The position numbers and the translations under genes are program-made. Of a stretch of 64,000 nucleotides of DNA, positions 169-62,018 are shown piece by piece. The first letter of the stretch is position 1, and the number at the start of each line of letters is the position of its first letter. Where the stretch lies: IMG/VR virus record IMGVR_UViG_3300015241_000002, positions 1 to 64,000 of that record; one strand, written 5' to 3'. The notes under the pieces were generated by a model, which was given only the letters and a program-made list of their open reading frames with translations, was not told the DNA's origin and did not search any database. Source of the DNA: a virus.

Positions 169-358
169 CGATTCTTGCCCTGTGGGGGTTTTTGACAAGA
201 TCTCCATGGGGCATGAATTTAAACAAGGAGAGAAGATGATCATGGTTCTGGAGCCCGGTACCTGGGATATGGACACTGGACGTTTCGTCCGTGTCCGGCC
301 AGATCAGCTCGCCAGCTGGCCAAATGATCTTGACTATAGGCAAGTATAGGCACTCGAC

Positions 359-724
359 ATGTCTAATTATGGATACAATAAAATACACGATGAGGTTAGA
401 GCTGAAAAAGGCCCGGCCACTCTGTACTTATGCGTGGATTGCCCAAATAGAGCAGCTCATTGGTCATATGATAATAACGACCCAAATGAACATTTTAACT
501 TAAAACTACAATATTATAGCGAAAACGTAGATCATTACGTTCCAAGATGTATGCCATGTCATCAACAATTTGATATGTCTAAAAAATTTCAAGAAAGAAT
601 AACCCTTCAATGTGAACATGAATTACATGTAAAGTATGATACTGAAGTGAAATATAAATTTATATTTTGTTACGGATGTATGTTTTATAGACGCGAACCA
701 TTGGGGGATTATAATGAGCAATAA
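359..724 (+). CDS. HNH homing-type endonuclease
   Basis: 121-aa ORF. It carries CVDCPNRAAHW...DPNEH...HYVPRCMPCH, the Cys-pair plus His-Asn-His arrangement seen in freestanding phage HNH nucleases. Confidence 0.75.
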   Translation: MSNYGYNKIHDEVRAEKGPATLYLCVDCPNRAAHWSYDNNDPNEHFNLKLQYYSENVDHYVPRCMPCHQQFDMSKKFQERITLQCEHELHVKYDTEVKYKFIFCYGCMFYRREPLGDYNEQ

Positions 725-1106
725 GTTGCCATCAGACCTATGGAATCTTTCGGTGGAAGCCCTTAATAATTCTGAACGTTGGTTTGGAGAGAGTGGAGTA
801 GCTGCGGATATTTCTCATATGAGTTTGTCCATGTGTGGGGAGGCAGGAAATTTAGCTAACATTATCAAATTAATAGATCGGGGTGAGATAGACCCTAAGG
901 ATGCACGTGCTCACTTTGATATGGTGATGGCACTTGCCGATGTGTTCGTTTATGTACTTAACATAGCTGCAATATTACAAATTGATTTGTTGAGAGCGTA
1001 TGAACAAAAAGTGATTGCTAATGAGAAACGGTTTGTAGATGATAGGGAAAAGAAAAATCAACCTATTAGAGCAATAGGTTGGCAATCGTATAGTAGTGGA
1101 GAGTAA
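714..1106 (+). CDS. MazG-like nucleotide pyrophosphohydrolase
   Basis: 130 aa. The segments CGEAGNLANIIK...ALADVFVYVLNIAAILQIDLLRAYEQKVIANEKRF match the helical MazG/dimeric dUTPase-like pattern (GE.GE....K...EL.DV..Y...LA...GIDL..A...K...N..R). Confidence 0.7.
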   Translation: MSNKLPSDLWNLSVEALNNSERWFGESGVAADISHMSLSMCGEAGNLANIIKLIDRGEIDPKDARAHFDMVMALADVFVYVLNIAAILQIDLLRAYEQKVIANEKRFVDDREKKNQPIRAIGWQSYSSGE

Positions 1107-1375
1107 TGAGAAAAATTTACTTTTATGCTGGAGTAATTGGAAATACAAATGATAATACTTCAAGTCCGCATTCAAGAGTAGAAGAATATGAAGATGAGCT
1201 TCCAGAAAATGAGCAACACAATGGAATCCAAGGTGTAAATCTACATGCTTATGGAGATTCTCTTGACTCTGCATTCTTGGAGGTATATGGACCGGACGAA
1301 AACGAAGTATTTCATAAGTGGAATCAAATCTCTGCATTAAGTTTAGGATTCCTTCAAGCTTGGTGGGAAGAATGA
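1106..1375 (+). CDS. hypothetical protein
   Basis: 89-aa ORF with a TAATG junction to the upstream gene. The product is acidic. No motif recognised. Confidence 0.55.
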   Translation: MRKIYFYAGVIGNTNDNTSSPHSRVEEYEDELPENEQHNGIQGVNLHAYGDSLDSAFLEVYGPDENEVFHKWNQISALSLGFLQAWWEE

Positions 1376-1641
1376 TAATATCAACTAGACAGGCAGAAAA
1401 GATACTTGCTAGAACTTTAGAATTTCGTATCTCAGATGGACATGTTGAGTTTCTTGAATTCAATACAGATGACGATGGTGAGGAAAAGATAACTGTAAGA
1501 GCAGTCCAGCCTGTGGAGCTTTGGGCATGGCAGCTTTGGAATCAATCTCTAATTCTAGTTCAACAAGTTATGGAATTAACTCCAGAGCAGGATGGACCTA
1601 AACTTGGAGTGGAATCATTCAAGAGAGTAATGGATCAATGA
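1372..1641 (+). CDS. hypothetical protein
   Basis: The in-frame ATG at 1372 forms an ATGA overlap with the upstream stop. I prefer it to the 1318 start given in the ORF track. No motif recognised. Confidence 0.55.
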   Translation: MIISTRQAEKILARTLEFRISDGHVEFLEFNTDDDGEEKITVRAVQPVELWAWQLWNQSLILVQQVMELTPEQDGPKLGVESFKRVMDQ

Positions 1642-1928
1642 GAGTATTAAGATATGAAGTTCCTGTTGATGATTTTACACATGTAATTTCTCTATCAGGT
1701 GAAGTGTACCCATTTATCAATGCTTCACACCCACACATTGTCGAATTCTGGTCACTTGACACTGGCGGTCCATCCACAGATAGAAAATTTAGAGTCGTAG
1801 GTACTGGACAGCCGCTTCCAATCTCTGAGTATTGGGAAGGAGATTACGTAGGAACAGCAATCCATATTATAACACCATCTGGACTGCCTGGTTCGCGTTT
1901 GGTATGGCATTTATTTGAAATTAAATAA
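1638..1928 (+). CDS. hypothetical protein
   Basis: 96-aa ORF with an ATGA overlap onto the upstream gene. No motif recognised. Confidence 0.6.
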   Translation: MRVLRYEVPVDDFTHVISLSGEVYPFINASHPHIVEFWSLDTGGPSTDRKFRVVGTGQPLPISEYWEGDYVGTAIHIITPSGLPGSRLVWHLFEIK

Positions 1929-1985
1929 AAAGTCGGGCACGTCCGCTCGCGCATAGGCAAGGACCCCACAGGGAAGGAATAGGTA

Positions 1986-2219
1986 ATGTCTGTACAGCAA
2001 GAAATGTCTATTGGAGCCAAGTTCGTTCTTTTAAAAGACGGGCAAGGACCAGACATTTGTATTTATCACGATGGAGAGATTGAACACGAGATTGCATGGA
2101 GCGCGGTGCCTGAGAGCGGCGAACTCGACGATACAGACGTAAAAGATAGGTTTAAGTGGCTTATTGATGCAGCAGCGGCGTTCCACGAAATTCCAGTGGA
2201 AATTGAGACTATTAAGTAA
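1986..2219 (+). CDS. hypothetical protein
   Basis: 77-aa acidic ORF with a GGAAGGA Shine-Dalgarno sequence just upstream. Confidence 0.6.
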   Translation: MSVQQEMSIGAKFVLLKDGQGPDICIYHDGEIEHEIAWSAVPESGELDDTDVKDRFKWLIDAAAAFHEIPVEIETIK

Positions 2220-2329: not shown

Positions 2330-2353
2330 CTAATACATCAACAGGAGGCTAAG

Positions 2354-2524: not shown

Positions 2525-2527
2525 TAT

Positions 2528-3576: not shown

Positions 3577-3579
3577 TAT

Positions 3580-4155
3580 ATGAAAAGACGTCATCCTGAA
3601 GCATTATGCGAGAGTTGCCCCCTCTTCGAGACAGGCGAATTCGTGCCTAGCTGTGGGCCGGAACATGCAAAATTGGCGGTTATCGGAGAGGCCCCGGGTA
3701 TTAATGAATCAAGAATCGGAAAACCGTTCGTTGGTCAGAGTGGTAGGCTTTTGGACGTATTGCTTAAGCACAATGAAATTGACAGAGAAGAAACCTTTCT
3801 TAGCAATGCGTGCCTATGTCGAGATCCTTCCGGAGAAAATCCTCCCAAAGATGCAATCGGTGCGTGTAGACCAAGACTACTTCATGAACTCAAAGAGCGT
3901 GGAGTGGAAACTGCCGTTGCCATGGGAAACTACGCAGCCGAATCACTTTTGGGTAAAACTGGTATCACGAAGCTCCGGATTGGACCCCCAAAAGAAAGTA
4001 ACACTATCAATGGAATTAGAGTTATTCCGACCATCCACCCTGCGGCGGCTCTTAGAGCGCCTGATAACTTTCTATTTATCCAAAGAGATTTCAAAAAGAT
4101 AAATGGGATTCAAAGAACATGGAATCCCCCTAATTATATAGTAGTTGATGATTAA
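3580..4155 (+). CDS. uracil-DNA glycosylase, family 4-like
   Basis: 191 aa. It has an N-terminal Cys cluster (CESCPL), the motif GEAPGINESRIGKPFVGQSGRLLD (GE.PG..E...G.PFVG..G.LL) and a C-terminal HPAAALR. Confidence 0.8.
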   Translation: MKRRHPEALCESCPLFETGEFVPSCGPEHAKLAVIGEAPGINESRIGKPFVGQSGRLLDVLLKHNEIDREETFLSNACLCRDPSGENPPKDAIGACRPRLLHELKERGVETAVAMGNYAAESLLGKTGITKLRIGPPKESNTINGIRVIPTIHPAAALRAPDNFLFIQRDFKKINGIQRTWNPPNYIVVDD

Positions 4156-4622
4156 TGGATATATTAGTTGATCCAGAAGATGAACATTTATTAAAGAAAT
4201 ATAATTGGAGAGCAAATGCTGATGGATATGCATGCGTTAATAGATCTGGAAACGTAATATTTCTACATAGTTTAATAATGGGTTTCTTAGGGGTGGATCA
4301 TATCAACTGTAATCCACTAGACAATAGACGTTCTAATTTACGACCAGCGACTGACCAACAAAATACACAGAACAGACGTAAATGGCACAAACAAGGAAAT
4401 AGTATTTATAGATCTAAATACAAAGGAGTCTATACTAAAATTACTAGGAAAGGAGTTATATATTATTGTTCACATATAAGAGAAAATGGGGCACTAAAAT
4501 ATTTAGGGTCTTTCGATACTCCAGAAGAAGCAGCGCTAGTTTGGGATGAAAATGCACGGCGCCTACATGGAAACTTTGCAAGACTAAACTTTCCAATGGA
4601 AGGAGAGGAATCAGCTTTATGA
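4155..4622 (+). CDS. HNH endonuclease with C-terminal AP2-type DNA-binding domain
   Basis: 155 aa. The HNH core is LHSLIMGF..VDHINCNPLDNRRSNL. The AP2-like segment is YKGVY...YLGSFDTPEEAALVWDENARRLHGNFARLNF. The gene lies between UDG and the polymerase, as freestanding homing endonucleases often do. Confidence 0.8.
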   Translation: MDILVDPEDEHLLKKYNWRANADGYACVNRSGNVIFLHSLIMGFLGVDHINCNPLDNRRSNLRPATDQQNTQNRRKWHKQGNSIYRSKYKGVYTKITRKGVIYYCSHIRENGALKYLGSFDTPEEAALVWDENARRLHGNFARLNFPMEGEESAL

Positions 4623-6512
4623 AAGCTGTAGATGCCATAAGGCAAGTCAAAGCTCTCAATCCTAAGTTTGTAACTATAGACATAGAATGTGGAATAGAAA
4701 AGGATGCATCGTTTGGACATCCAAATGAGTTCGATCTTTTATGTGTTGGAATAGGATACGCAAAAGGCAAGGTATTAGTTATCGGAGAAAATGCTTTAAA
4801 GAAGGATGAAGTTTTAGAGGAGCTTGGGGATCTTTTACGATCAGTGAGGATTGTTTGCCAAAACGGTAAATTTCGATCTAGCAGGACTCTATCTACATTG
4901 CGGTCCATTAAAATTATGGGCAGACACAATGTTAGCGCATTATGTGCTGGACGAGCGTCCTGGTGTTCATGATCTAGAACAAATGTCTATGGAAGATTTG
5001 GGAAGTCCCAATTGGAAAAATACATTAAATAAATATAAAAAGCCTGGAGAATCGTATGCAGTCATACCGAGAGACGTTCTGTATAAATACAATGCTTTTG
5101 ACGTGGCCAATACATATGATTTAATTGAACTATATTTGATGGAGATTGAAGCCCAACAGGAAAAAGATACTTACTTCTTGCTTCAAGGTAAGATGGTTCC
5201 TGGTAAGACGTTGTTGGACGTTCATGATTTTCTGTGTGAAGTCTCTAACGAGTTAATGTTCGTAGAATTGAATGGAATTGGAATTGACCCAGATTACATT
5301 GACGAGCTGGCTGAGAAACTTGAATTCAATATGGGTAATTTGGAAAGATCCATTAACGATATGCTTCCATGGATTAAGTCTGTGGATGAGGACGGTATAC
5401 CAGATGTTGGCCAGAGAGACTATGATAAAAAACTAGGTGGCGTTAATCCTCGTAGTCCTAAGCAGCTTTTGCAAGTGTTCAAAGATTTTGGAATGTATAC
5501 ACAATCTACTGATGCTGATACATGTAAGATGATTATTGAAGTTAAGGGATTAGATTCTACAATTGGAAGATTTTGCGCAACATTATTACAATATAGAATG
5601 GAAGCTAAAGAATATGGAACCTATGTGGACGGGATACGAAAGCGTATCCTTGCTGGTACCACCAGAGTTTATCCAAGTTTCTTGCTCCATGGAACCACTG
5701 AGGGAAGATTATCATGTAGGAATCCGAATCTCCAGAATGTTCCTAGAAAATCTGCCATCAGAAGACTTTTCGTACCTACGAAATCTGAAAATATCTTCGT
5801 TCAAGCCGACTATTCACAGGCTGAACTTCGAGTCCTATGTTGGCTCGCCGGGGATACTTACTTCACTCCAATTTTCAACGAGGGAATAGAAGATATATTC
5901 GATACTCTTTCTGAAAATGTATTGTTTCCTCAATACCCAAAAGCAACTACAGACAAAGAGTTCTTTAAGGAAGTTAGATCGAAATGGGTCAAACCTTTTG
6001 TGTACGGGTTAGCGTATGGTCGTACTGAACATGGAATTGCAGGAGACATTGAAATTGGAATGACGCTCAACGAAGCTAAGCTAACTATGGATAAATTCAT
6101 GAGTGTTATCCCAGAGATAGTTCGTTGGCAAAAAGACATTAAGAGAATAGTTTCCGGTGGCGGTGACCTAGTTACACCATTTGGTAGGCACAGAAGATTC
6201 CATCTTATCACACGGCAAAATCATGACGATGTAATGCGCACTGGTTTGGCTTTCGTACCTGCAAGTACGTCATCAGATCTATGTCTTAGAGCATTTGCTA
6301 GAATGAACCCAGAGTTTAGAGCTAAAAAAATAGCCGTAGTCCGTAACCTGGTCCATGATAGCGTTATTGCAGAGTGTAATGAAAATGATGCTGAAGAGGT
6401 AGGACAGATAATGACTAAATATATGTTAGATTCAGCCCAAGAGCTTGTTGGGAATTATGTAAAATTTGCAGTGGATGTTGAAACGGGTTTTAGTTGGGGG
6501 GATCTCCATTAA
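4619..6512 (+). CDS. polA: DNA polymerase I (family A, 3'-5' exonuclease plus polymerase domains); reading frame broken by a 1-nt shift near 4868-4874
   Basis: Track ORFs 4619-4972 and 4851-6512 overlap in different frames. The first carries Exo I (VTIDIE) and ends in ...VCQNGKF. The second continues DLAGLY...DTMLAHYVLDE. Polymerase motifs are present: RNPNLQNVP, ADYSQAELRVL (motif A), KPFVYGLAYG (motif B) and LVHDSV (motif C). Confidence 0.85.
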
Positions 6513-7798: not shown

Positions 7799-8248
7799 AT
7801 GGAACTTCGAATGGGATTCTCTGGAACAAGATATGGTATGACTAATGGTCAGTCCAAAAAAGTTGCAGAGATAATTAACTGGTTTAGACCACAAGAATTT
7901 CATCATGGAGATTGCATTGGATCGGATGCAGAAGCTCACGAAATTGTTAGTAAGCACGAATATATTTGGACGGTTGGGCATCCTCCAATAGATGACAGTA
8001 AAAGAGCATTTTGCAAATTTGATCAAGAAAGACTTGCACAGGAATACAAAGCTAGAGATAGAAGAATTGTCATAGAGTCCAATATATTAGTAGCAACACC
8101 AAAAGATCCATTTGAAGTTTTGCATTCGGGAACGTGGACCACAATAAGATATGGTTTGGAAGCAAATATTCCCGTACTTATTGTAAGAGCCGATGGTACT
8201 TTAATGGTTAAGGGCTTGTTTGGGTTAAGCGGAATTCTTGAATATTAA
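7799..8248 (+). CDS. SLOG/DUF2493-like Rossmann-fold protein (tentative)
   Basis: 149 aa. GFSGTRYGMT...HHGDCIGSDAEAH...GHPP resembles the GTR.G...HGG..G.D pattern of DprA/DUF2493-type SLOG proteins. The call is weak. Confidence 0.4.
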   Translation: MELRMGFSGTRYGMTNGQSKKVAEIINWFRPQEFHHGDCIGSDAEAHEIVSKHEYIWTVGHPPIDDSKRAFCKFDQERLAQEYKARDRRIVIESNILVATPKDPFEVLHSGTWTTIRYGLEANIPVLIVRADGTLMVKGLFGLSGILEY

Positions 8249-9511: not shown

Positions 9512-9577
9512 ACCACGACCCCATTCAATTGAGGGATGACACGGGGAGCTAGTGTCAAAATTGAATGGGGTCGTGGT
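9512..9577. terminator. large hairpin at the point where the + and - strand blocks converge (candidate bidirectional terminator)
   Basis: A perfect 19-bp inverted repeat: ACCACGACCCCATTCAATT (9512-9530) and AATTGAATGGGGTCGTGGT (9559-9577), with a 28-nt loop. It starts 5 nt after the stop at 9507. Confidence 0.6.
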
Positions 9578-9652: not shown

Positions 9653-9820
9653 CTAACGACGGCGCGGTATGTCATCTGGGTTAAAGAAGGATAAAGCCCA
9701 AAAAGCTATCCCCAAGTAAAATAGATTTACAACATGATCGTTGACTGTAGGACCCTTGACAGCAAAGGCAGCGAACCCGATCAATAGAGCCGCAACTAGA
9801 ATACATAATGCCCTGAACAT
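9653..9820 (-). CDS. small membrane protein (55 aa), possibly lysis-associated
   Basis: Translated by hand. AGGAG lies upstream of the ATG at 9820. MFRALCILVAALLIGFAAFAV...LFYLGIAFWALSFF gives two hydrophobic segments. The gene follows the holin-like gene. Confidence 0.45.
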   Translation of the reverse strand: MFRALCILVAALLIGFAAFAVKGPTVNDHVVNLFYLGIAFWALSFFNPDDIPRRR

Positions 9821-19677: not shown

Positions 19678-20945
19678 GACATATTCTCTGCCGTAATAAC
19701 AGTCAACTGATAATGCTTACCAGTACCATCGATTGCGCATTGATAAGTGATGCTAGCTCGAACCAAGTCGCCTTGACCACCAATGTTGACTTCATACGTA
19801 TCAACGATGGAAGTTGGAGACAGAAGTGCAATAGATTCAACCGGTGAAGTGTGAGTAGCAGTTAGAGTAATAGATTTAGAAGTCAATGCCTTAAATGCAT
19901 CATATTCAGTGCGGTTAAAGAAGTCACGAGTAATTGTAATACTAGCCTCGGACTCACCGAATGCAACAAACTGAGCACCAGTATTAGCGCTAATCAGGCG
20001 GAACTGTGCAGCTCCATTATCATTCGATTCAAAAGTGAATCCATCCGAATCAAAAATCTGAGTAGCAGTAGGAATCTGCAAGTTATACTGTCCGGCACCA
20101 AACGGAGTAGTAGTTGGCCAAGTCGCAGTGGGACCGGATTGCACAGTCTCATTTGTAGATACAATAGTTGGAGTAAACTGTAGAACGGCGTTATTAACCT
20201 CAAACTTGAAGCTGCCAACGGTACACCCAACGTAGCCGTAAACAACACCATTTCTAACAATCGTAATCGACAAAGTACGAGCTGGTACAGCCACAGCAGA
20301 TGGTGTATACACATAAGTATTCTGTGCAGCAACGACCTTAGTAAAAGTACACCTCGATGCAGACAGGAAATAAACAATACAGTCAGTCAACGCCTCAATA
20401 GAGATGTCACCTTCTGCATTAGAGAATCCTGGAGATGCACCGACAAGTCCAGGAGTATTACGGATTGGTCGACGCCAGTTAGTCTGCTGGACATACTTCA
20501 ATGATTCAGACAGATATGGAATGTACTTAGTCGGAGCTACATACACACCAGGATTCGCAGCAGTATTAATAAGTGGAAATGCTCCAGTTGGAGTGCCAGG
20601 AGTAGTGTCTGTATCTGTAGTAACAAGACCTACGGTTTTGTAAAGAAGTTCAGTGCCTGCACCACCACCGGCAGCTGTTTTATACAACTTAAACCCAGTA
20701 GCTCCAGCAACAGTTACCCAAACTAAAACGACTGACGATGTAGATCCTGTTGTAACTACACCACTTATTTCGTTACTAGTAACAGTTTCCCCAGCTCCAT
20801 TGATTGCAGTTATTATGTACCTATAGGTACCAGCAGTAATGGTCCCGCCAGAGGCAGATGGAGTTGCGGAAGTAAACACTGGAGGTGGCAAAACTTCTGC
20901 GGCCACACCCATAATACTAGCGGCGCCAAGTCCGGGTGTCGTCAT
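19674..20945 (-). CDS. major tail protein with N-terminal FN3-like module
   Basis: 423 aa, placed upstream of the chaperones and tape measure. The N-terminal GTYRYIITAINGAGETVTSNEISGVVTTGSTSSVVLVWVTVAGATGFKLYK is FN3/Ig-like, as in many siphovirus tail tube proteins. Confidence 0.65.
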   Translation of the reverse strand: MTTPGLGAASIMGVAAEVLPPPVFTSATPSASGGTITAGTYRYIITAINGAGETVTSNEISGVVTTGSTSSVVLVWVTVAGATGFKLYKTAAGGGAGTELLYKTVGLVTTDTDTTPGTPTGAFPLINTAANPGVYVAPTKYIPYLSESLKYVQQTNWRRPIRNTPGLVGASPGFSNAEGDISIEALTDCIVYFLSASRCTFTKVVAAQNTYVYTPSAVAVPARTLSITIVRNGVVYGYVGCTVGSFKFEVNNAVLQFTPTIVSTNETVQSGPTATWPTTTPFGAGQYNLQIPTATQIFDSDGFTFESNDNGAAQFRLISANTGAQFVAFGESEASITITRDFFNRTEYDAFKALTSKSITLTATHTSPVESIALLSPTSIVDTYEVNIGGQGDLVRASITYQCAIDGTGKHYQLTVITAENMS

Positions 20946-21322
20946 GTCTGGTCATCCCCCTTCAAACTATCGCCAACAAGCTTTTCTTTATTATCTGTGG
21001 GGGAAAAGCCGCCCACCACTATCGGATCTAGAACAACTTCTTCCACCGGACTCGAAGGCGAATCGTACTCTTCTATAGTAACGCCTGGAGTCAAATCAAA
21101 AGCACTTAGAAGATTAAACTCTGGAGCATCTTCACCCCATGTAGCCTCTAAAGTAGCCGGATCCTGCATTAGATTATTAGGTGCATGATGGGCTATGAAA
21201 GCGTCCTCATTAAAGTCTTCTGGCAAGTCTGTGGATTCTCCATTCTTGAAGAGTCCAACACCATCCACCTCCACTAATGCACCCTGAGGTAAGTTGGGTA
21301 GGTCAACGGTAATTTTGTACAT
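20942..21322 (-). CDS. hypothetical virion-module protein
   Basis: 126-aa acidic ORF with an ATGA overlap onto the downstream gene. Confidence 0.5.
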   Translation of the reverse strand: MYKITVDLPNLPQGALVEVDGVGLFKNGESTDLPEDFNEDAFIAHHAPNNLMQDPATLEATWGEDAPEFNLLSAFDLTPGVTIEEYDSPSSPVEEVVLDPIVVGGFSPTDNKEKLVGDSLKGDDQT

Positions 21323-21344
21323 TAAATCCCTCCTAACCTAAGGG

Positions 21345-21800
21345 CTAACTTGGCAACAAAAACTGTGACTGTGCAGTATAACTAATTTTATTTGCACGGA
21401 CTAGTGAGCCGCTCTTTGTGGTATACCCTGACTGTACCTCTGGGCAATAACCATGAATGACCCGTCCACCCAATTGCCTATCAGAATGGACTACTGCTTC
21501 AACAGCCTCAGCTAGTAAGTCCGCCCCTCTTCTGTTTTCCTGTGGGGATGTTATAAAGCTATGGTATACTAGAATAGTTAAATCAAAAACTATATCTAAC
21601 ATTCTAGCACCGGCAGCTTGACGTAGCAAATTTCTTTTAGTGCCAGGTTCTATACAAACTACGGGGGTAGTTGGTATTTTATCTTGATCCCCAAAGAATA
21701 CGTCTGCTAAACCTAAAGTCGCTTTATTGTCCAACATTTTGTCAAATAAAAAATCACAAACTTCTACTAGGCTTCCAGTTAATGTACCAACTTGCGTCAT
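21345..21800 (-). CDS. head-tail joining / tail terminator-position protein
   Basis: 151-aa ORF. The call rests only on its position between the connector genes and the tail tube gene. Confidence 0.4.
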   Translation of the reverse strand: MTQVGTLTGSLVEVCDFLFDKMLDNKATLGLADVFFGDQDKIPTTPVVCIEPGTKRNLLRQAAGARMLDIVFDLTILVYHSFITSPQENRRGADLLAEAVEAVVHSDRQLGGRVIHGYCPEVQSGYTTKSGSLVRANKISYTAQSQFLLPS

Positions 21801-21809: not shown

Positions 21810-22487
21810 CTACCACCTAGTATAAGCTGCAACGCGTTCATTAAGCCATACTATAAATATATCTCTAATTCTATCCTCATCCTCCGGCTGTATAACAAGG
21901 AACGGACGAGCTGGGACATCAGGAGCAGTTTTTCCTTGCTTGATATTACCAAGCTCCCTAAGTCCAGCTCCTAATTGTCCTGCAGTAACTCCACGTTTTA
22001 CAGTAGTAGTTCCCACAGGGTAACCAGATTGCTGAACCTTACCATACCAAACGGACTGTTGAAGATCCTGAACTTCTGCTTTTTCCCTATCAATAGTCCA
22101 AAGATTAAGCTGTGTAGCTTTACGCTTTAAGGCTCCAGTTGAATCTAGTATATTATTTCCAGACCCACCACGTTCACCGAATCTGACTAAACCTCTTTCT
22201 CTCATTTCTAAAGAGAAGTCCGAAAGAGGTTCCCAATCACCACCGGCTCCAGGTGCATTACGAGCTGATTCAGAATCAAAATTCTGTCTAATACTAGGGA
22301 TCATTACTTGCTGAACTGCTCTAGTCAATGGAACTCTAAATGACCTAATATCCATGTCCAGTTTAGCAAGACGACTAGCAACAAAACCTATTGATGGGGA
22401 GAAAGTAACGCTGGCCCCAACTGGTAGAGCACGACCAAACCTTATAGCTCCAGGTGCGTTAACAGCACCACTAGGTGTGGTCACCAA
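21810..22487 (-). CDS. virion morphogenesis protein (Mu gpG-like, tentative)
   Basis: 225 aa. The segment IPSIRQNFDSE...GGDWEPLSDFSLEMRE...NILDSTGALKRK resembles the phage virion morphogenesis family pattern (F...G....W.PLS..T...R....IL..TG.L). Confidence 0.45.
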   Translation of the reverse strand: MVTTPSGAVNAPGAIRFGRALPVGASVTFSPSIGFVASRLAKLDMDIRSFRVPLTRAVQQVMIPSIRQNFDSESARNAPGAGGDWEPLSDFSLEMRERGLVRFGERGGSGNNILDSTGALKRKATQLNLWTIDREKAEVQDLQQSVWYGKVQQSGYPVGTTTVKRGVTAGQLGAGLRELGNIKQGKTAPDVPARPFLVIQPEDEDRIRDIFIVWLNERVAAYTRW

Positions 22488-40361: not shown

Positions 40362-40401
40362 GTTAACAAAAGCGACAAAATTGACGTTAACAAAAGCGAC
40401 A
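40362..40401. repeat. two exact 16-bp direct repeats GTTAACAAAAGCGACA in the divergent intergenic region
   Basis: The copies are at 40362-40377 and 40386-40401, 24 bp apart start to start. They lie inside the ORF-free stretch 40063-40731. Confidence 0.8.
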
Positions 40402-40731
40402 TTAACGAATTATAAGACACGACAATAAGGATAAAATTAGACAATCTCTACATAAAATCACCACAAACTAGGACAGTGCTAAGCTATGCCTAGTTCCAAA
40501 GCACGGATCGGAGCGGGGCCACCATTGCCTGCAACACGCAAGAGATAGGAGAGAGAGGCACACAAGCACAAGGCTACTGCTATGCCTTGCTACATACGTA
40601 CACACAAGACAGTCACGTGCTTTCCCTAGCCTGACTCTGACACCTATCTATGCAGAGTCTCAGACGTCTAGTGAGCACAGTGTGTGCGTATCTAGGAAGC
40701 CATAGATTGGCCTCTAGAAAGGATAGGCGCC

Positions 40732-41350: not shown

Positions 41351-41692
41351 ATGAAAACTCAATACGCAATTGCTGTGACAGCCACCGTAATAATCGGGCT
41401 GCCTCTATTGGCCGGGTGTAATAACTCGGGCCCCGGGGAGCATCCCAAAGGCCCCACAGGGCAAACGGCGGCAGTGACGGTAAAGCCACAGGTGACTGAA
41501 GAGGATTTGTACCATTTCAATTGCCTGACGATGGGCAACCACAAATGCGGATCGAAGTGGCAAATCCTAGACGCCGGATGGAAGGGGCAAGTAAAACTAG
41601 ACAACCCACGCCAAGACACAACGGGTTGCAAAGTCTTAGTCGGTGACACTACCTATATCGACTGCCCAAACGGAAGGATCTACACAAGCTAA
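41351..41692 (+). CDS. lipoprotein
   Basis: 113 aa. The signal peptide carries the lipobox LPLLAG-C (MKTQYAIAVTATVIIGLPLLAGCNNSG). GGGGAG lies upstream of the ATG. Confidence 0.7.
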   Translation: MKTQYAIAVTATVIIGLPLLAGCNNSGPGEHPKGPTGQTAAVTVKPQVTEEDLYHFNCLTMGNHKCGSKWQILDAGWKGQVKLDNPRQDTTGCKVLVGDTTYIDCPNGRIYTS

Positions 41693-41725
41693 CACAACAC
41701 AACACAACACAACACAACACAACAC
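41691..41725 (+). repeat. pentanucleotide microsatellite (AACAC)x7
   Basis: Seven perfect tandem AACAC units start inside the lipoprotein stop codon (TAA at 41690-41692). Confidence 0.95.
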
Positions 41726-41741
41726 ATGTAAATGCTGCATT

Positions 41742-41787
41742 GCCCCGACTAGGGTCAGATACGGATGAACCGTCAAGTAGTCGGGGC
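41742..41787 (+). terminator. hairpin downstream of the lipoprotein gene
   Basis: A 10-bp stem, GCCCCGACTA (41742-41751) and TAGTCGGGGC (41778-41787), followed by TTTG. The loop is 26 nt and the U-tract is weak. Confidence 0.45.
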
Positions 41788-41833
41788 TTTGCTGTGTCTA
41801 TATGGGCACACTAACTGAATAGAAGGTGACGTA

Positions 41834-42019: not shown

Positions 42020-42092
42020 ATAGAACATTGTCTTAGTCATGCACTAGGACAGTGTTGTGTCTATATGGCACAAGACAGGAGGTGAAACAAAC

Positions 42093-42536
42093 ATGTCCAA
42101 GTCAGAACACACTGAGTTTGTCATGCCGACAGTGACGTTCGTAGAGGATTACGAACCCACTACTCAGCTAGGCCGAAAGGCAGAGGATAACCCGTTTAAC
42201 GACGTCGTGACTGCGCTCGCCGCTACTTACGATAAAGAGCTCAATCGCAGCAAGGGTGCCGCTAATCTGGTGATCGCAAAGGGTGAAACTCGAATCCGCG
42301 TAGCTGCAAAAGTACAGAAGGCTGCCCGTGCACAGGGTTTCACTGCACGTATCGATGACAAGGCGACCGAAAAAGGATTGGCCGTCATTGCGGTCTATCT
42401 CGTCCCAATCATCAATCGCAGTTCAAAGAAACATCCAAAAACTGTCACTATCACTAACGTGGCAGACACCGCAGACGATGCTTCAAATGGACTGGAGTCA
42501 GCTCCAGAAAGCCAGGAACAGTCTGTTACAGTTTGA
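42093..42536 (+). CDS. hypothetical protein
   Basis: Internal ATG at 42093 preceded by GGAGGTGAAACAAAC. The product is 147 aa. No motif recognised. Confidence 0.55.
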   Translation: MSKSEHTEFVMPTVTFVEDYEPTTQLGRKAEDNPFNDVVTALAATYDKELNRSKGAANLVIAKGETRIRVAAKVQKAARAQGFTARIDDKATEKGLAVIAVYLVPIINRSSKKHPKTVTITNVADTADDASNGLESAPESQEQSVTV

Positions 42537-53679: not shown

Positions 53680-54060
53680 ATGACACAACCAAATGCCCCA
53701 CAGGAAGATGTAACAGCTAGAACTGTAAGAGTGGCCGGAGTACAAGCATTAGTTCTAGCTTACTTCGATAAGCATCCAAACCAGGTCTTACACATTGCAG
53801 AAATATCAGAAGCTGTAGGATCGCCAAGTGACAAGGTCCGCAATGCTATCAATAACATTAGGACTGGAAACAAAGCTGACGCTCAGAAGCGTTTGAAGGT
53901 CGAGCTTCAAGGTCAGGCTTGGGTTTGGCGTAGTGGCAATTTAGGAACCGATGGGTCCACACTAGATACACTCTATGTCAAGGCTTATGAATCCAAGAGT
54001 GGTGTTGTTTTAGTGGAAGATGAGAACGGCCAAGTTTACAAATTAACTCCTATTGAATAG
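53680..54060 (+). CDS. possible winged-helix DNA-binding protein
   Basis: 126 aa. LVLAYFDKHPNQVLHIAEISEAVGSPSDKVRNAINNIRTG looks like an HTH or winged-helix segment. The call is tentative. Confidence 0.4.
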   Translation: MTQPNAPQEDVTARTVRVAGVQALVLAYFDKHPNQVLHIAEISEAVGSPSDKVRNAINNIRTGNKADAQKRLKVELQGQAWVWRSGNLGTDGSTLDTLYVKAYESKSGVVLVEDENGQVYKLTPIE

Positions 54061-55258: not shown

Positions 55259-55404
55259 TGTATGTAGTTGTTGCCATGATTCTTTATGCATACTGGCACT
55301 TTGTTACCATCCCAGATATGTTATTTCTAATCGTAGGGATGGTAATAAAGGGAATAGAGATCAATCCGGATGGAAAACCCATACTCAGAAAAGGCAAGAC
55401 GTAG
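55258..55404 (+). CDS. small membrane protein (48 aa)
   Basis: Translated by hand. It has a TAATG junction. The hydrophobic stretch is MYVVVAMILYAYWHFVTIPDMLFLIVGMVI. Confidence 0.35.
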   Translation: MYVVVAMILYAYWHFVTIPDMLFLIVGMVIKGIEINPDGKPILRKGKT

Positions 55405-55651
55405 GTTCCTTAGGAAGTTTGTACTCTATACGTTTTTAGCTATACCTGGTACAGTGATAGGGCTATTATTAACGCTTACAATCGTCTTGGCAATTATCGG
55501 GATTCCATTAATGTTACTATCCATTAGACCTCTCGCATTGCTTAACAAGCGGCGTGTCGCTGCCATAGTTGAGTGGGATTTCGAGCAGCTTAGACTAGCT
55601 AAAGAGTCCAAGATTTACGGACCCGAACCTAAGCGGCCATGGTTAAACTAG
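55370..55651 (+). CDS. membrane protein
   Basis: 93 aa with two hydrophobic helices (FVLYTFLAIPGTVIGLLLTLTIVLAIIGIPLMLLSI). Confidence 0.5.
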   Translation: MENPYSEKARRRFLRKFVLYTFLAIPGTVIGLLLTLTIVLAIIGIPLMLLSIRPLALLNKRRVAAIVEWDFEQLRLAKESKIYGPEPKRPWLN

Positions 55652-55893: not shown

Positions 55894-56124
55894 GTGAGAT
55901 TATATAGGCAAGCGATCGACCGGCGGGCGGTAATTGTGAGTGACAATAGTAGAAGCATACCTTGTATTAGCTGTGAAGGCGCAGGGTATAGCTGGAAAAG
56001 ACTTGTGGATTTCCAAGATGAAGAGACATGTAGTCATTGTAAAGGTACAGGTCTGGAGCCTGTAGTTACAATGACAAGTGGCTTTGAAGGTTCAATCCCA
56101 CCAATTAACATGCCCAAGTTATAA
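55894..56124 (+). CDS. DnaJ-type CxxCxGxG zinc-finger mini-protein
   Basis: 76-aa ORF with a GTG start. CISCEGAGY and CSHCKGTGL are two CxxCxGxG motifs. The start codon is uncertain. Confidence 0.45.
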   Translation: MRLYRQAIDRRAVIVSDNSRSIPCISCEGAGYSWKRLVDFQDEETCSHCKGTGLEPVVTMTSGFEGSIPPINMPKL

Positions 56125-56814: not shown

Positions 56815-56816
56815 AG

Positions 56817-57141: not shown

Positions 57142-57597
57142 ATGAGCAATACAACTAAGGCAGCGCCTCCTGCGCTCTATATACATTGCAGGGCCATATA
57201 CGACAAGATGATGGAACGTGCACACGAGGAACAGCACAAAGATGGTTCCATGATCGTGTACGTTGGATTTTTGACGTATCTTATTCAAGAGCTCTCTTTA
57301 AGCAGCCCCTATTATACATTTGGAACTAAGGCTCTCAAGGAAATGGGATGCATTAGACAAATTCAACGGGGCGGTGGACGAAACCCTAGTCATTGGGAAC
57401 TTATAAAGGCACCCACCGAAGAATTGTTTAGGTTAGCAAATCCTAATGATGCATCTAAGGCACAGTTAGGAAGAAAGGGTGCTGATGCAATGTTACAGGC
57501 CCAGCTTGTAGACTTAACTAAGAGAGTCAGTTTATTAGAGAAGGCTATTGTGCCCAAAAATACAGAATTATTGGCGGATGGAGTTAGCAATGACTGA
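57142..57597 (+). CDS. hypothetical protein, possible winged-helix
   Basis: 151-aa ORF with GGAAGG upstream. LKEMGCIRQIQRGGGRNPSHWELI resembles a wing segment. The call is tentative. Confidence 0.45.
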   Translation: MSNTTKAAPPALYIHCRAIYDKMMERAHEEQHKDGSMIVYVGFLTYLIQELSLSSPYYTFGTKALKEMGCIRQIQRGGGRNPSHWELIKAPTEELFRLANPNDASKAQLGRKGADAMLQAQLVDLTKRVSLLEKAIVPKNTELLADGVSND

Positions 57598-57968: not shown

Positions 57969-59507
57969 ATGTTAGACTTATATCCTTATCAAGAGAACGA
58001 TATCAAGAAACTCTATAGACAAAAAAGTGCAAGTATAGAATCAGAGATGGGCAGTGGCAAGACGCTCGAAGCTATAGCTCTTGAAGAATTGTGGAATCCA
58101 TTGGGAGAGAAGCCTACTCTTGTTATAGCACCAATTAATACGTTTGATACATGGCGCAGTAAGTACGCTATACAGGCTCCTGGTGTGGACTTGATTACTA
58201 TTGATCGTAAGAATGCTGAGACTAGGAACGAATTCCTAAAGAAGATTCAAAAGCGTCAAGGTGACGTATTCCTTATGCATTACGAAGCCGTTCCATTGAT
58301 GCCAAAATTACAGAAAATTGAATTTGAAGTAATTATATGCGATGAAGCACACAGACTTAGCAATTGGCGAATCAAGAGGACGCAAGCTGTAAAGAGGCTA
58401 AAGACGAATCATAAGCTTGCAATGTCTGGGACCATGACTGGAGAATACCCGGATAGGCTATGGAGTATATATGAATGGTTATGGCCTGAGTACTTTACTT
58501 CCTACTGGAGCTTTCGTAAGCGCTTTTGTGAGGAAGAGGAAGTATGGAGTGAGAAAAGACAGACTTATTATACCACAGTTGTTGGAACTAAAAATATAGA
58601 TATACTGAACGACATTCGTGATCCTTGGAGAGTGCGGCATCTCAAGAGAGAACAGTGCTGTTCGAACCATCTTAATGGGATTATGAACTGGCTGCCTGAC
58701 AAGACGTACGACGATCCTATCATGGTAGATCTTTCGCCGACACAGAGAAACTTCTATGATCAGATGGAAGCTAGCATGATTGCATGGATTGGGGAGAATC
58801 AGAACGAGCCACTTGTAGCTCAAGTAGTTATTGCTCAGCTAACCAGGCTTAATCAAATGGCATTGGCTACTCCAGAGTTCTATACCAAGTTGGTATGGAC
58901 TCCATACTATGAGCGTGAGCATGACCAAAATGGTAAGAGAATAAGTGAACCAGAGACTCCTATTATTAACCCTATTACTGGACTGGTTGAGAAGCATAGA
59001 GTACCAATTCAAGCAATCAAGCTAAAGGCTCCATCAAGTAAGATCGAAGCATGTATTGACTTTATCAAGGATCATGCTTCTCAACCATTAGTTGTATTTA
59101 GTTCTTCTAAGAAAGTGTGTTACTTAGCTCAGGAAGAATTTGCAAAACAGCATATTACTTCTGAGGTCCTAAGTGGAGATACACCACAGTCTCAAAGAGA
59201 CGGAATGGTGAAGCGTTTCAATAATGGAGATTTCCAAGTATTCATTGGAGTAATTGAAGCTGCGGCTGAGGGAATTGATGAGCTACAATTAACATGTGAT
59301 ACCATGATTTTCTTAGACAGATCTTGGAGAACAATTAAGAACAAGCAAGCAGAAGAAAGACTAGATCGTCCGGGCCAAAAGAATACAACTAGAGTCATTG
59401 ATATTCAAGCTCGTGGTACTAGAGATGCTGGAAGAAAGCAGCAACTCGAACTTAAGTGGGAAAATATCCGCAGTATGCTTGGTGACCCTACATTAGGAGA
59501 CAAATAA
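57969..59507 (+). CDS. SNF2/DEAH-box superfamily-2 helicase
   Basis: 512 aa with GAGGTGAA upstream. Motif I is EMGSGKT and motif II is CDEAHRL. The C-terminal helicase domain contains GIDELQ...DRSW...QAEERLDRPGQ. Confidence 0.85.
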   Translation: MLDLYPYQENDIKKLYRQKSASIESEMGSGKTLEAIALEELWNPLGEKPTLVIAPINTFDTWRSKYAIQAPGVDLITIDRKNAETRNEFLKKIQKRQGDVFLMHYEAVPLMPKLQKIEFEVIICDEAHRLSNWRIKRTQAVKRLKTNHKLAMSGTMTGEYPDRLWSIYEWLWPEYFTSYWSFRKRFCEEEEVWSEKRQTYYTTVVGTKNIDILNDIRDPWRVRHLKREQCCSNHLNGIMNWLPDKTYDDPIMVDLSPTQRNFYDQMEASMIAWIGENQNEPLVAQVVIAQLTRLNQMALATPEFYTKLVWTPYYEREHDQNGKRISEPETPIINPITGLVEKHRVPIQAIKLKAPSSKIEACIDFIKDHASQPLVVFSSSKKVCYLAQEEFAKQHITSEVLSGDTPQSQRDGMVKRFNNGDFQVFIGVIEAAAEGIDELQLTCDTMIFLDRSWRTIKNKQAEERLDRPGQKNTTRVIDIQARGTRDAGRKQQLELKWENIRSMLGDPTLGDK

Positions 59508-59728: not shown

Positions 59729-59729
59729 A

Positions 59730-60196: not shown

Positions 60197-60204
60197 GAGA
60201 CTTA

Positions 60205-60537
60205 ATGGACATTACTTTAGACCCTAACGACCAGTTCGAGGCAGTAGTAATGGAAATGGTTAGGACTAATCGAAAGAAACGTGCCGATTATGCTGGTGAT
60301 GGGCACATTTTTCAAAACTTTTATGATTCAGCATATCAACTTGGATTGACGCCTGGCTATTCTGTAGAAACACTCGTTGCCACTAAGCAATCACGCTTAC
60401 GTGTCTTGGGTGTGGAAGATAAGAGAATAGTTAATAACGAATCTAAGCGGGATACAATTTTAGACAGAGCAGTATATTCAGTTATCGCATTAGCCCTTTA
60501 TGATGAGGGTTCCTATGCTCAAACTTGGCAAGAATAA
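60205..60537 (+). CDS. DUF1599-like protein (nucleotide-modification-associated domain 1)
   Basis: Internal ATG at 60205 preceded by AGGAGA. RKKRADYAGDGHIFQNF...ATKQSRLRVL...DTILDRAVYSVIAL follows the DUF1599 pattern (K..DYg...F.NF......K..R......D...D..nY). Confidence 0.5.
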   Translation: MDITLDPNDQFEAVVMEMVRTNRKKRADYAGDGHIFQNFYDSAYQLGLTPGYSVETLVATKQSRLRVLGVEDKRIVNNESKRDTILDRAVYSVIALALYDEGSYAQTWQE

Positions 60538-60554
60538 TCAAAAGGAAAAATAAA

Positions 60555-61067
60555 ATGCCTAATCAATCTAAACCATTCAAGGTTGAAACCGAACCACGAG
60601 GAGAAATAGTACAACTATATTTTGGTATGGGCAATTGGACAGAGAGTCTGAAAGAGGCTACGGAGCAAGCAGACGGCACAGGTGTTTATGTTCGAACTGT
60701 TTATTATGGGCCTATTTCTAAAGTGGACGAAGAAGATTCCGCATTAACACCGAGTTATGTGGAGGAACTTCCAGATCATTCTGATCATGGAATAGATAGA
60801 AGAGAAGTTGTAAGAGAAGGTTTAGTAGAGCTTCGCAATGCAATGCTTACTATTCCTCGCTTCGATGAAACACTTTTGCTTAGTCATGCAATCTGGTGGT
60901 TGTCGGATCACGACGTGCCTACACCTGCACCGCTGCCTAGAGAGCTTCTGACGGCCGATCCTGCGCTCATGGCTAGCCCAGAAGGTGACGTCAAGGGATT
61001 GCAAGAGCTTAGAGACGAAATTGATTGGGTACACAACGATAATTTGAACGAGCCATGGGAAAACTAA
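60555..61067 (+). CDS. hypothetical protein
   Basis: Internal ATG at 60555. The product is 170 aa. No motif recognised. Confidence 0.5.
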   Translation: MPNQSKPFKVETEPRGEIVQLYFGMGNWTESLKEATEQADGTGVYVRTVYYGPISKVDEEDSALTPSYVEELPDHSDHGIDRREVVREGLVELRNAMLTIPRFDETLLLSHAIWWLSDHDVPTPAPLPRELLTADPALMASPEGDVKGLQELRDEIDWVHNDNLNEPWEN

Positions 61068-61231
61068 TGGTTAAGGATTTGCTACATACAGAGGAAACCA
61101 TGAGAGTCTAGTGGGTGAAGTAAGAGGTCCAACTACCTATAACTCTATGGTCATTGCAATTGAAGCAGAATACAATCCAGAAACTAACAAAACTCGCGTA
61201 AAGTTTGCCCATGTAATAGAAGGTGATTTGG

Positions 61232-61405
61232 ATGGGACTGTACCAAGCTAGATATCTTCCAGAAGATGATGACATTTGTGCCTGTGGTCACTTCGCAGGA
61301 AGTAAGACATACAGACATTGTGATGAATGTGATTGCAAAAAGTTTAACTTAGATGAAAAAGCAACTCTTTCAAATTGGGAAGCCGAGGAAGCAACGTGGG
61401 ACTAG
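61232..61405 (+). CDS. Cys-rich mini-protein (57 aa)
   Basis: ATG at 61232. The GTG at 61223 used in the track is part of the AAGGTGA Shine-Dalgarno sequence. The product has CACGH...HCDECDC. Confidence 0.45.
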   Translation: MGLYQARYLPEDDDICACGHFAGSKTYRHCDECDCKKFNLDEKATLSNWEAEEATWD

Positions 61406-61620
61406 TGGGACTGACTATTTCTCCAGACCCATCGATGAATTATGAACACGAAGTTGGCAATAATGGATGCTATATTAGCTGGTGTGGAAGCCAAGGTTAT
61501 CCCAAGGATTGTAAACAAGAGGGATGTGATGGGTTAGTCCATGCCGACTTTGGTGACGAGAATATGGACTGTGATTACTGGCTGTACACGAAATGTGATA
61601 AGTGTGGTGAAAGTGAATGA
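61405..61620 (+). CDS. Cys-rich hypothetical protein
   Basis: The GTG at 61405 overlaps the upstream TAG. An alternative ATG lies at about 61435. The product has multiple Cys pairs (CDGLVH...CDKCG). Confidence 0.4.
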   Translation: MGLTISPDPSMNYEHEVGNNGCYISWCGSQGYPKDCKQEGCDGLVHADFGDENMDCDYWLYTKCDKCGESE

Positions 61621-62018
61621 GCGTTTACGTTATCCTGGACTTTGATGACGAATTGGAGGCTAAAGAGTTTGTCATTGACGCTAGGTATGCACCATGGAAA
61701 ACAAGAACTAATACAGTAGTTGACCCTACAGTTGCAGCAGTAATCAAGAAAGCTACTGTATTCTGCCATTGTGTTAAAAGAGAGGGCTGGACTAGAGGCA
61801 GGAATTTTGGATGGTATGTCTGTGCTAGTTGCGGACACCCTACAGAAGCGTATGCATCCATAGATAGTTGGGCATCTTTTATGGGAGCGAATCTACTACC
61901 ACCAGAAATTTCCAAAGAGATGAGACCTAAAGGTTGGGAACATTCACCGAAAGAATGGACCTTCTTGTTGGCACCAAAGACCCCACAGGGAACAGAACAA
62001 ACTGACAAGGAAATTTGA
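61617..62018 (+). CDS. hypothetical protein
   Basis: 133-aa ORF with an ATGA overlap. It contains CHC...CASCGH Cys pairs. Confidence 0.55.
   Translation: MSVYVILDFDDELEAKEFVIDARYAPWKTRTNTVVDPTVAAVIKKATVFCHCVKREGWTRGRNFGWYVCASCGHPTEAYASIDSWASFMGANLLPPEISKEMRPKGWEHSPKEWTFLLAPKTPQGTEQTDKEI

Follow-up and report, generated by a model that had tools for sequence, protein, structure and literature searches.

A dispersed, clade-conserved short DNA element in uncultured soil siphophages and its possible role as a protein-binding site

Results

Genome context

IMG/VR virus record IMGVR_UViG_3300015241_000002 (positions 1 to 64,000; this whole 64,000-nt stretch is referred to below as the window) is a permuted cut that covers the greater part of a siphophage genome of 71.2 kb, recovered from soil metagenomes (JGI 3300012925/27, ENA ERZ272531xx). 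It harbours 12 exact copies of the word CCCACAGGG or its complement CCCTGTGGG, and the motif built around this word is a real, strongly selected and clade-conserved cis-element that belongs among the dispersed short repeats of phage genomes. Our first choice for its role, held tentatively and drawn from sequence comparison, is that of a dispersed, lineage-specific protein-binding DNA site that would mark gene junctions and punctuate expression.

The genes of the window form two arms. The rightward arm (40.7-64 kb and 1-9.5 kb) carries helicase and polymerase genes together with uracil-DNA glycosylase and HNH genes; the leftward arm (40.1-9.65 kb) encodes TerS, TerL, portal, protease, capsid protein and tape measure. 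The genes that serve as landmarks are:

4851-6512, rightward arm: DNA polymerase A
34399-35829, minus strand: TerL
39715-40116, minus strand: TerS homologue
57142-57597, plus strand: gp57142, 151 aa, a predicted winged helix followed by a long C-terminal helix, candidate reader of the motif
57969-59507, rightward arm: SNF2 helicase

Contig L155 (1447-8654) joins the end of the window to its start via 7,208 nt that are absent from the window and code for a 752-aa PDDEXK nuclease, an AAA_24/Sak4-like protein, DUF669, a 749-aa DUF3987 primase-helicase and DUF397. This stretch contains no strong motif site, and the window holds all strong sites of the genome. No DNA-level match to the window was found among cultured phages; the best cultured-phage terminase match has 37% identity and comes from a phage without the motif. 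The Pfam domains of close relatives (DUF397, DUF6197, DUF6085 and TROVE) tentatively suggest an actinobacterial host range. The only 'cellular' match, Bacterium UASB270, is a wholly viral 47 kb scaffold. Annotation of approximately 70 open reading frames (ORFs), mostly ORFans, gave almost no regulators, and no RNA polymerase gene was found among the large ORFs of the 71 kb genome. The window encodes two tRNAs, neither with a motif site nearby.

Sequence and enrichment of the motif

Exact copies of CCCACAGGG start at 178 (minus), 1965, 9635, 22012, 26512, 38258, 41204, 41453, 46280 (minus), 53114, 55786 (minus) and 61982. A preliminary description of this DNA had reported the same 12 copies, one of them a base away (22013), as well as near-variants that proved to be real and to lie within a few bases of where they had been placed (17451, 21538, 35881, 44422, 53697 and 56178). 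Its claim that the word exceeds chance was borne out: Markov models of orders 0-5 predict 0.2-0.9 copies (Poisson p ~3e-17 at order 3), and 100 dinucleotide shuffles gave an expectation of 0.38 with a maximum of 3. The motif is the strongest over-represented word of 8-10 nt in the window, with 10 copies of CCCCACAGGG against 0.05 expected, 14 of CCCCACAGG against 0.31 and 19 of CCCCACAG against 1.5; enrichment is 30- to 200-fold above all background models. One-mismatch variants of the 9-mer occur at chance level (10 extra, with about 10 expected), and the enriched unit grows by 5' extension, not by mismatch.

The resulting unit is asymmetric and spans approximately 13-14 bp, (C)AAAG-N0-1-CCCCACAGG(G), around a core that is invariant across the clade, the 8-mer CCACAGGG. 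The preliminary description had both flanks in agreement, which is correct for the A-rich 5' flank (0.3-0.7 bit per position at -7 to -4); the 3' flank is weak. A weight matrix trained on the low-GC subclade, with its information spread over about 14 positions, detected in the window 15 sites scoring >=18 bits (0.03 expected) and 19 scoring >=14 bits (0.7 expected), a scan that is partly circular because about half of the training sites come from the window. Chance or composition as the source of the motif was ruled out by the shuffles, the Markov models and the weight-matrix scan. TTTAAACAA, considered as a recurring downstream box, has two copies only and is not enriched, and neither is ACAAAAGCG, considered as a companion motif. 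No standard promoter, operator, cos or Chi match was found, in line with the preliminary description, and literature string searches for the motif matched only primers and 'macrophage'. The sites in the window, with weight-matrix scores, are as follows:

178-187, minus strand: CCCCACAGGG, plus strand CCCTGTGGGG then GTTTTT; 9 nt past the stop codon at 166-168, upstream of the HNH-like gene 359-724; 27.1 bits
1964-1973, plus strand: CCCCACAGGG; 36 nt past the stop at 1928, continuing straight into AAGGA and the ATG at 1986; 24.4 bits
9634-9643, plus strand: CCCCACAGGG; at the arm convergence, 10 nt beyond the stop of ORF 9653-9820 (minus), adjoining a separate perfect 19-bp inverted repeat (9512-9577); 23.6 bits
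17451-17460, minus strand: variant CCCCACAGGC; within the tape-measure gene; 22.2 bits
21538-21547, minus strand: variant CCCCACAGGA; within gene 21345-21800 (minus); 19.1 bits
22012-22020, plus strand: exact 9-mer; deep in gene 21810-22487 (minus), with T at -1 and without the A-rich flank, the weakest of the 12; <12 bits
26511-26520, plus strand: CCCCACAGGG; in a 158-nt spacer, 22 nt past the stop of gene 26544-26882 (minus), with an HNH_3 endonuclease gene (26385-25957) and the prohead protease downstream of it; 27.3 bits
35880-35889, plus strand: variant CCCCACAGGC; 51 nt upstream of the TerL start (35829, minus), followed on the mRNA strand by a small hairpin with TTTGTATTT; 20.9 bits
38257-38266, plus strand: CCCCACAGGG; within a 180-aa gene (38137-38679, minus) that is called in contig L023; 25.8 bits
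41204-41212, plus strand: ACCCACAGGG; 10 nt past the stop at 41193, paired with an imperfect inverted copy, CTGTGTGGGT, ~45 nt downstream; 18.7 bits
41452-41461, plus strand: CCCCACAGGG; within a lipoprotein gene (lipobox LAGC), coding for Gly-Pro-Thr-Gly; 24.8 bits
44422-44431, minus strand: weak variant CCCCACAGAG; 75 nt past the stop at 44347; 15.3 bits
46280-46289, minus strand: CCCCACAGGG; in a spacer, the ATG at 46342 lying 53 nt downstream, with 38 flanking nt similar to the flanks of site 35880; 20.6 bits
53113-53122, plus strand: CCCCACAGGG; 162 nt past the stop at 52951 and 46 nt ahead of the start at 53169; 20.9 bits
53696-53705, plus strand: variant CCCCACAGGA; codons 6-9 of gene 53680-54060, whose product is winged-helix-like by eye; 21.9 bits
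55786-55795, minus strand: CCCCACAGGG; between genes 55370-55651 and 55894-56124, the latter encoding a small protein with two CxxC pairs; 26.6 bits
61981-61990, plus strand: CCCCACAGGG; in the last 36 nt of the conserved zinc-cysteine (Zn-Cys) gene 61617-62018, 32 nt ahead of the next ATG; 26.7 bits

Conservation in related phages

Relatives were fetched via TerL (L002-L021, 51-67% identity) and via the helicase (L027-L031 and L150-L152, 46-88% identity), for which >200 homologues had E <=1e-20. CCACAGGG is the top or a near-top over-represented 8-mer in L005, L008, L009, L012, L015, L151, L027 and others, and the relatives enriched for it have terminase or helicase identities of 54-77% and GC contents of 40-62%. 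The forms of the motif and their copy numbers are:

L005: TACCACAGGG, 9 copies
L008: CCACAGGG, 5 copies
L009: CCACAGGG, 6 copies
L012: CCACAGGG, 9 copies
L015: CCACAGGG, 7 copies
L151: AGA-CCACAGGG, 10 copies
L027: AAAACC-CCCACAGGG, 4-5 copies
L152: cAAAAC-CCCACAGG, 8 copies
L030: variant CCCACAGCC, 6 copies

The 5' flank is characteristic of each subclade (CAAAG-N-CC in the window phage, AAAAC-C in L152, AGA in L151 and TTA in L005), and L152 keeps its flank even at sites within genes. Beyond the clade, 117 random IMG/VR loci with one AAAG(N)CCCCACAGGG match each, among the matches listed, showed no further enrichment; contig L100 has four copies and lacks homology to the window, with atypical flanks; Arthrobacter phage Wollypog has a single CCACAGGG in 50 kb.

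CCACAGGG is kept across subclades ahead of different genes, and several individual positions are also shared. Window site 178 is the positional orthologue of L027 20803; both have a stop codon, 8 nt and then CCCTGTGGGGGTTTTT, with flanks otherwise unrelated. The position of window site 61981 is shared with L028 13506 and L029 6389, and a variant is present in L030. This site lies in the variable C-terminal tail of the orthologous Zn-Cys protein and is read in different frames (Pro-Thr-Gly versus Pro-Gln-Gly), and therefore selection acts on the nucleotides. Window site 53113 aligns with L028 3657 behind an orthologous 263/269-aa gene, and a site is located upstream of TerL in both the window (51 nt) and L008 (57 nt). 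At the 5' end of the portal gene, CCT GTG codons are kept in L009, L011 and L013, with a near-variant in the window. The preliminary description had accepted that a lack of positional conservation among relatives would count against it; because relatives conserve the motif and several of its positions, its proposal stands on this point.

Placement and orientation of sites

Eight of the 12 exact copies in the window are intergenic and one more lies 36 nt ahead of a stop codon, leaving those at 22012, 38258 and 41453 within genes. Taking the window, L027 and L028 together, 17/20 sites are intergenic or <=36 nt from a gene end (p <1e-8, even with 25% of the genome counted as boundary), and many begin 5-13 nt past a stop. 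Distances to the next start range from 12 to 172 nt in the window with no peak at a fixed distance. The preliminary description had put the motif immediately downstream of stop codons relative to transcription and had stressed its intergenic copies. The stop codons that it named are all present and the concentration at junctions is real; the orientation is mixed, with about half of the intergenic sites of the window reading CCCCACAGGG and half CCCTGTGGGG on the mRNA strand, and in L012, L151 and L152 many sites are deep in genes.

In the window, nine copies are on the plus strand and three on the minus strand, and on the mRNA strand its intergenic sites divide into 4 in the CCCCACAGGG sense and 4-5 in the CCCTGTGGGG sense; the corresponding split is 2:3 in L027 and 4:1 for intergenic sites of L151. 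The same asymmetric flank is present whichever strand is transcribed. Across the clade, CCACAGGG is on the early-gene sense strand (equivalent to CCCTGTGG on the terminase-sense strand) in about two-thirds of sites, with counts of 9:3 in the window, 10:3 in the L007/L151 phage, 2:3 in L027, 5:4 in L005 and 4:4 in L152. In a hand tally of intergenic sites from nine phages, the early-gene strand carried CCACAGGG at a ratio of 26:13 and the local mRNA strand carried CCCTGTGG at one of ~20:15, two frames of reference that are inseparable with these data. When strands were scored individually, 21% of sites had CCCTGTGG <=40 nt past the stop of an ORF of >=90 aa (7% of random positions) and 24% had a Shine-Dalgarno sequence and start 0-70 nt downstream (11% of random positions); the opposite strand showed no such enrichment after stops or before starts. 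Deep coding sites favoured CCCTGTGG on the sense strand by 21:6, a bias that codon constraint may explain, as 14 of the 21 encode Pro-Val (CCT GTG).

The 36 nt located 5' of CCACAGGG fold better than controls (-7.4 versus -5.9 kcal/mol, p 1e-4), with no difference on the 3' side, and an adjacent hairpin is present at ~38% of sites compared with 26% of controls. This modest effect may reflect the place of the motif between a stop codon and the usual intergenic hairpins. Inverted motif pairs occur in L015 (17558/17575), L012 (9565/9612), L009 (1770/1800) and L005 (5384/5488).

Tests for structure, terminators, promoters and mobile repeats

The preliminary description had drawn the core as a stem of 4-5 bp, which did not survive inspection of the sites: around the ACA loop, 9/12 window sites allow only three Watson-Crick pairs, and the relatives one or two (exactly two at all sites of L005, L003, L151 and L012; 1-2 in L152 and L030). 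The third G is kept without a pairing partner, beside a non-complementary base, as in ACCACAGGG, found nine times in L005 and eight times in L151. Twelve site regions that were folded share no common structure (z-scores near 0), and a conserved RNA hairpin was ruled out by the stem counts and the folding. The accompanying suggestion of sequence-specific recognition rather than a generic hairpin is supported.

A hairpin with a T-tract within 45 nt was found at 1/72 and 3/72 sites, compared with 2% of random positions. An intrinsic (Rho-independent) terminator was ruled out by a stem of <5 bp, the missing link to T-tracts and the mixed orientation relative to genes; beside site 9634 a proper terminator-like hairpin is already present. 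Alignment of 79 sites gave no position outside -6 to +7 with >0.15 bit, and thus no second promoter box, which excludes a bipartite promoter of the sigma-70 or extracytoplasmic function (ECF) type; sigma-70-like matches were fewer than in shuffles. A phage RNA-polymerase promoter (T7-type or N4 hairpin type) was rejected, no polymerase gene having been found among the large ORFs and the late-arm sites pointing against the genes. A mobile repeat of the repetitive extragenic palindrome (REP) or miniature inverted-repeat transposable element (MITE) type was likewise rejected, as the repeat families collapse to 18-32 nt around the core and the flanks are not conserved. At the gathering threshold, Rfam matched only the two tRNAs in the window. 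One L027 site precedes a tRNA-like sequence that ARAGORN did not call, and as none is near the window tRNAs an association with tRNAs was discarded.

Other features of the genome and its relatives

Further features were recorded in the course of the analysis. The perfect inverted repeat at the arm convergence (9512-9530 / 9559-9577, 19 bp, 28-nt spacer) is likely a bidirectional terminator. Between the arms, 40117-40731 is an AT-rich divergent region from which CCCACAGGG is absent; it contains two exact direct copies of TTAACAAAAGCGACA (40363-40377 and 40387-40401, 24 nt apart) that overlap a TTGACG hexamer and resemble a pair of operators within the main divergent promoter region. The gap between the TerS homologue and TerL is ~4 kb in the window and filled with small ORFan genes; in 12 relatives the TerS homologue is directly upstream of TerL.

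Near the start of the rightward arm and far from the structural genes, the lipoprotein gene (41351-41692, lipobox LAGC) and gene 42057-42536 (weak Rz-family match) may constitute an unusually located spanin pair. A pentanucleotide tandem repeat, (ACAAC)x8 (41690-41726), begins at the stop codon of the lipoprotein gene and represents the second most over-represented word family of the window; it is followed at 41743-41788 by a CCCCGACTA...TAGTCGGGG hairpin with CTTTG. Two exact copies of TGTGTCTATATGG (41793-41805 and 42056-42068) lie ~30-40 nt upstream of the starts at 41834 and 42095, with no enrichment of this word elsewhere. In the virion module, the gene for a 1180-aa Metallophos-containing protein has, at 27093-29556, a family of diverged 46-nt repeats, spaced 66-69 nt apart in the central block.

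Three free-standing HNH-type genes are present (359-724, 4155-4622 and 25957-26385, minus); two have HNH_3 Pfam matches, and 359-724 was assigned as HNH-like by eye from its Cys/His pattern. In L027, the homologue of the 25957-26385 gene sits in a different module. L028 encodes a CUA-anticodon (amber-reading) tRNA at 8111-8183, called tRNA-Pyl by ARAGORN, beside tRNA-Ile and tRNA-Pro, which may be a suppressor tRNA. In L151, from the L007/L151 relative, QueC (20835-21575) directly follows the primase, a hint that part of the clade may modify its DNA with 7-deazaguanine; no QueC-type gene was seen in the window phage.

Discussion

The asymmetric 13-14 bp unit, the strand-independent flank, the core that does not follow GC content and the subclade-specific flanks together argue that a protein travelling with the phage lineage recognises DNA. 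Presence of the same flank on either transcribed strand fits recognition of DNA rather than RNA; constancy of the core over 40-62% GC makes a host factor unlikely and a phage-borne reader possible. The junction preference and the conserved positions tie the role to particular genes, for which reason expression punctuation is our first choice. We propose, with less than even confidence, that a protein of the phage lineage would read the 13-14 bp site as sequence, binding the CAAAGNCCCCACAGGG duplex, and that sites would be kept mainly in short spacers at cistron or module junctions, right behind stops, right ahead of ribosome-binding sites and at either gene edge (5' or 3'). The bound protein would mark these junctions and tune or time expression across them, either by preventing or dampening read-through or through control of the downstream cistron.

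The candidate for this reader is gp57142. All early regions that were fetched retain it ahead of the SNF2 helicase (35-60% identity), and the family has an invariant MGC.R...RGGG..S.W.L block. Its predicted structure has a mean confidence (pLDDT, predicted local distance difference test) of 73, rising to 86-94 over residues 11-100, and the best fold matches are the RepA_N initiator-DNA complex 5kbj and MarR-type regulators, at a weak E of ~6e-3. Like the motif, gp57142 is absent from the cultured-phage collection, where no homologue was found. Two alternative candidates are gp61617, the Zn-Cys protein, and gp53680, which looks like a winged helix and whose gene contains site 53696 within codons 6-9.

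Several observations weigh against a junction-marking protein site. The closest TerL relative, L002 (67%), has no enrichment in 21 kb; boundary sites make up only 5/10 in L151, 2/8 in L152 and 2/9 in L012, so that at least half of the sites in these three phages are deep within genes, which is unexpected for a pure junction signal. The distance to stops and starts varies from 5 to 170 nt, and the ~2:1 orientation bias is not predicted by a simple operator model. No integrase or repressor family was found among the ~70 ORFs scanned, which makes an immunity role of the stoperator type unlikely, and gp57142 is connected with the motif through co-occurrence and predicted fold.

The main rival is a polar DNA-metabolism signal on one strand, whether Chi-like, a primase site of the RepB'/DUF3987 type or a T5-like nick, which we consider possible and yet unlikely. 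The active strand would then be the G/T-rich 5'-CCTGTGGGG(T)TTTG. Escherichia coli Chi is GCTGGTGG, and the motif likewise has an 8-mer core with a G/T-rich complement and sites in both coding and non-coding DNA. A signal of this kind fits the excess of CCACAGGG on the early-gene strand (9:3, 10:3 and 26:13) and a clade core that comprises the SNF2 helicase, PDDEXK nuclease, AAA_24/Sak4-like protein, DUF669, DUF3987 primase (with a weak RepB_primase match) and several HNH genes. The better folding 5' of CCACAGGG is also in its favour, since ssi and nic sites are built in this way, with a hairpin beside a conserved word. However, the bias is only ~2:1 and is absent in L027, L005 and L152, its within-gene component could stem from the Pro-Val codons (14/21 sites), and the adjacent hairpins (~38% versus 26%) may just reflect intergenic location. 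The strong junction preference and kept positions also speak against it, as do the missing match to a known Chi sequence and the 13-14 bp unit with its subclade flanks, which to our knowledge is longer than any Chi.

A more specific form of this idea, a phage-encoded polar signal co-evolving with the replication and recombination module of the clade (SNF2, PDDEXK, Sak4-like and RepB'/DUF3987), seems to us distinctly doubtful; such a phage-specific Chi-like, priming or nicking site would mark DNA as 'self' and direct its priming, nicking or sparing. We know of no phage with a dispersed, lineage-specific signal of its own of this kind. If the motif were one, it would represent a new type of phage cis-element and make it possible to deduce signals of this sort solely from metagenomes.

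Action at the RNA level, which we regard as improbable, would involve a mini-hairpin (CCC-ACA/UGU-GGG) or a linear RNA word, CCCUGUGG and CCACAGGG being the motif RNAs of the two orientations. It could weakly terminate transcription, stabilise 3' ends, be a site of processing by an endoribonuclease or affect translation in the manner of the start-associated sequences (SAS) of mycobacteriophages, in which last case the G-run would double as or mask the Shine-Dalgarno sequence. Consistent with this, CCCTGTGG is in excess after stops and before starts on one strand only, some sites read CCCTGTGGGGGTTTTT (window 178 and L027 20803), and the G-run is 5-9 nt ahead of a start at window 1964, L027 8689, L027 20803 and L028 13506. 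Nevertheless, the stem is not conserved (two pairs in four relatives, three in most window sites) and shows no compensatory changes, the 12 folded site regions have no common structure, the sites show no association with hairpin plus T-tract, and no Rfam family matches. Between one-third and one-half of the sites are opposite to the mRNA orientation with the same asymmetric flank, and at site 9634 the terminator-like hairpin is a separate neighbour.

A boundary or linker word for cassette recombination, or a target or landing pad for free-standing HNH genes, is very unlikely. Sites do flank variable cassettes between conserved genes (for example behind the 263-aa gene, behind the Zn-Cys gene and ahead of the conserved gene 714-1106), and 2/3 of the window HNH-type genes (359-724 and 26385-25957) are directly downstream of sites 178 and 26511. 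However, 8-14 bp is too short for homologous exchange, nothing is repeated beyond ~14 nt, terminal inverted repeats and target duplications are missing, many sites lie within conserved genes, and the third HNH gene and that of L027 have no adjacent site. Least likely of all is a host-derived word (host Chi, uptake sequence or REP-like element) mimicked or acquired by the phages: hosts often have over-represented 8-10-mers that recur in their phages (Chi, DUS/USS, HIP1), and the inverted pairs in L015, L012, L009 and L005 are as for uptake sequences, but phages of 40-62% GC that share one core are unlikely to share a host lineage, the flanks vary by phage subclade, and random viral contigs with a single match show no enrichment.

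Comparison with known systems

Location just downstream of stops and GC-richness give the motif a likeness to terminators and RNase III-type hairpins, from which it differs in having only 2-3 pairs, no conserved stem and T-tract, and half of its sites the wrong way round. It resembles Chi in its 8-nt core with a G/T-rich complement, in recurring every 3-5 kb, in occupying genes as well as spacers and in showing a moderate strand bias. Chi, in contrast, is set by host RecBCD/AddAB and over-represented in the host chromosome; no known Chi sequence matched, and the window unit is longer with phage-specific flanks.

The closest parallels appear to be dispersed repeats of actinobacteriophages. The Cluster O 17-bp repeats (TGTTCGGNNNCCGAACA), of which there are >30 dispersed copies, are intergenic or in gene 5' ends and have no known function (PMC4351075). 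They share with the window motif an asymmetric centre without a clear orientation rule, but the Cluster O repeat is a true 7-bp dyad, whereas the window motif lacks such symmetry, and in relatives its dyad part is reduced to CC/GG. The SAS and extended SAS (ESAS) of Cluster K are 13-bp and non-palindromic, with outer triplets GGG...CCC, 11-19 copies and no known function; SAS are kept across subclusters ahead of non-homologous genes, and a subset has an adjacent inverted repeat (PMC3203893). The window motif similarly has symmetric outer triplets, CCC...GGG. SAS, however, lie 3-7 bp upstream of starts in one orientation, in the non-structural half only, and contain the Shine-Dalgarno core, while the window motif lies at 5-170 nt in both orientations and both genome halves, sometimes within genes, and only ~4-5 of its sites could double as a Shine-Dalgarno sequence.

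Cluster A stoperators (L5, Bxb1 and D29) are asymmetric 13-bp words with tens of copies, mostly in short intergenic spacers, that are read as sequence by a phage winged-helix or helix-turn-helix (HTH) protein and have a lineage-specific consensus (PMC9283540, PMC6550527). The window motif is also asymmetric, ~13 bp, dispersed and mostly intergenic. It differs in its mixed orientation, stoperators having a single orientation relative to transcription, and in its unrelated sequence; stoperators are the targets of a temperate phage's immunity repressor, whereas the window phage has no repressor or integrase that we could find and its reader is a predicted one. Few entry points exist to the regulation of large blocks of phage genes of unknown function. 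Stoperators, SAS and Cluster O repeats belong to them, and to these the present motif adds a well-defined case in a large uncultured clade of soil siphophages, with an invariant 8-mer core, subclade flanks that permit covariation tests and a short list of candidate readers.

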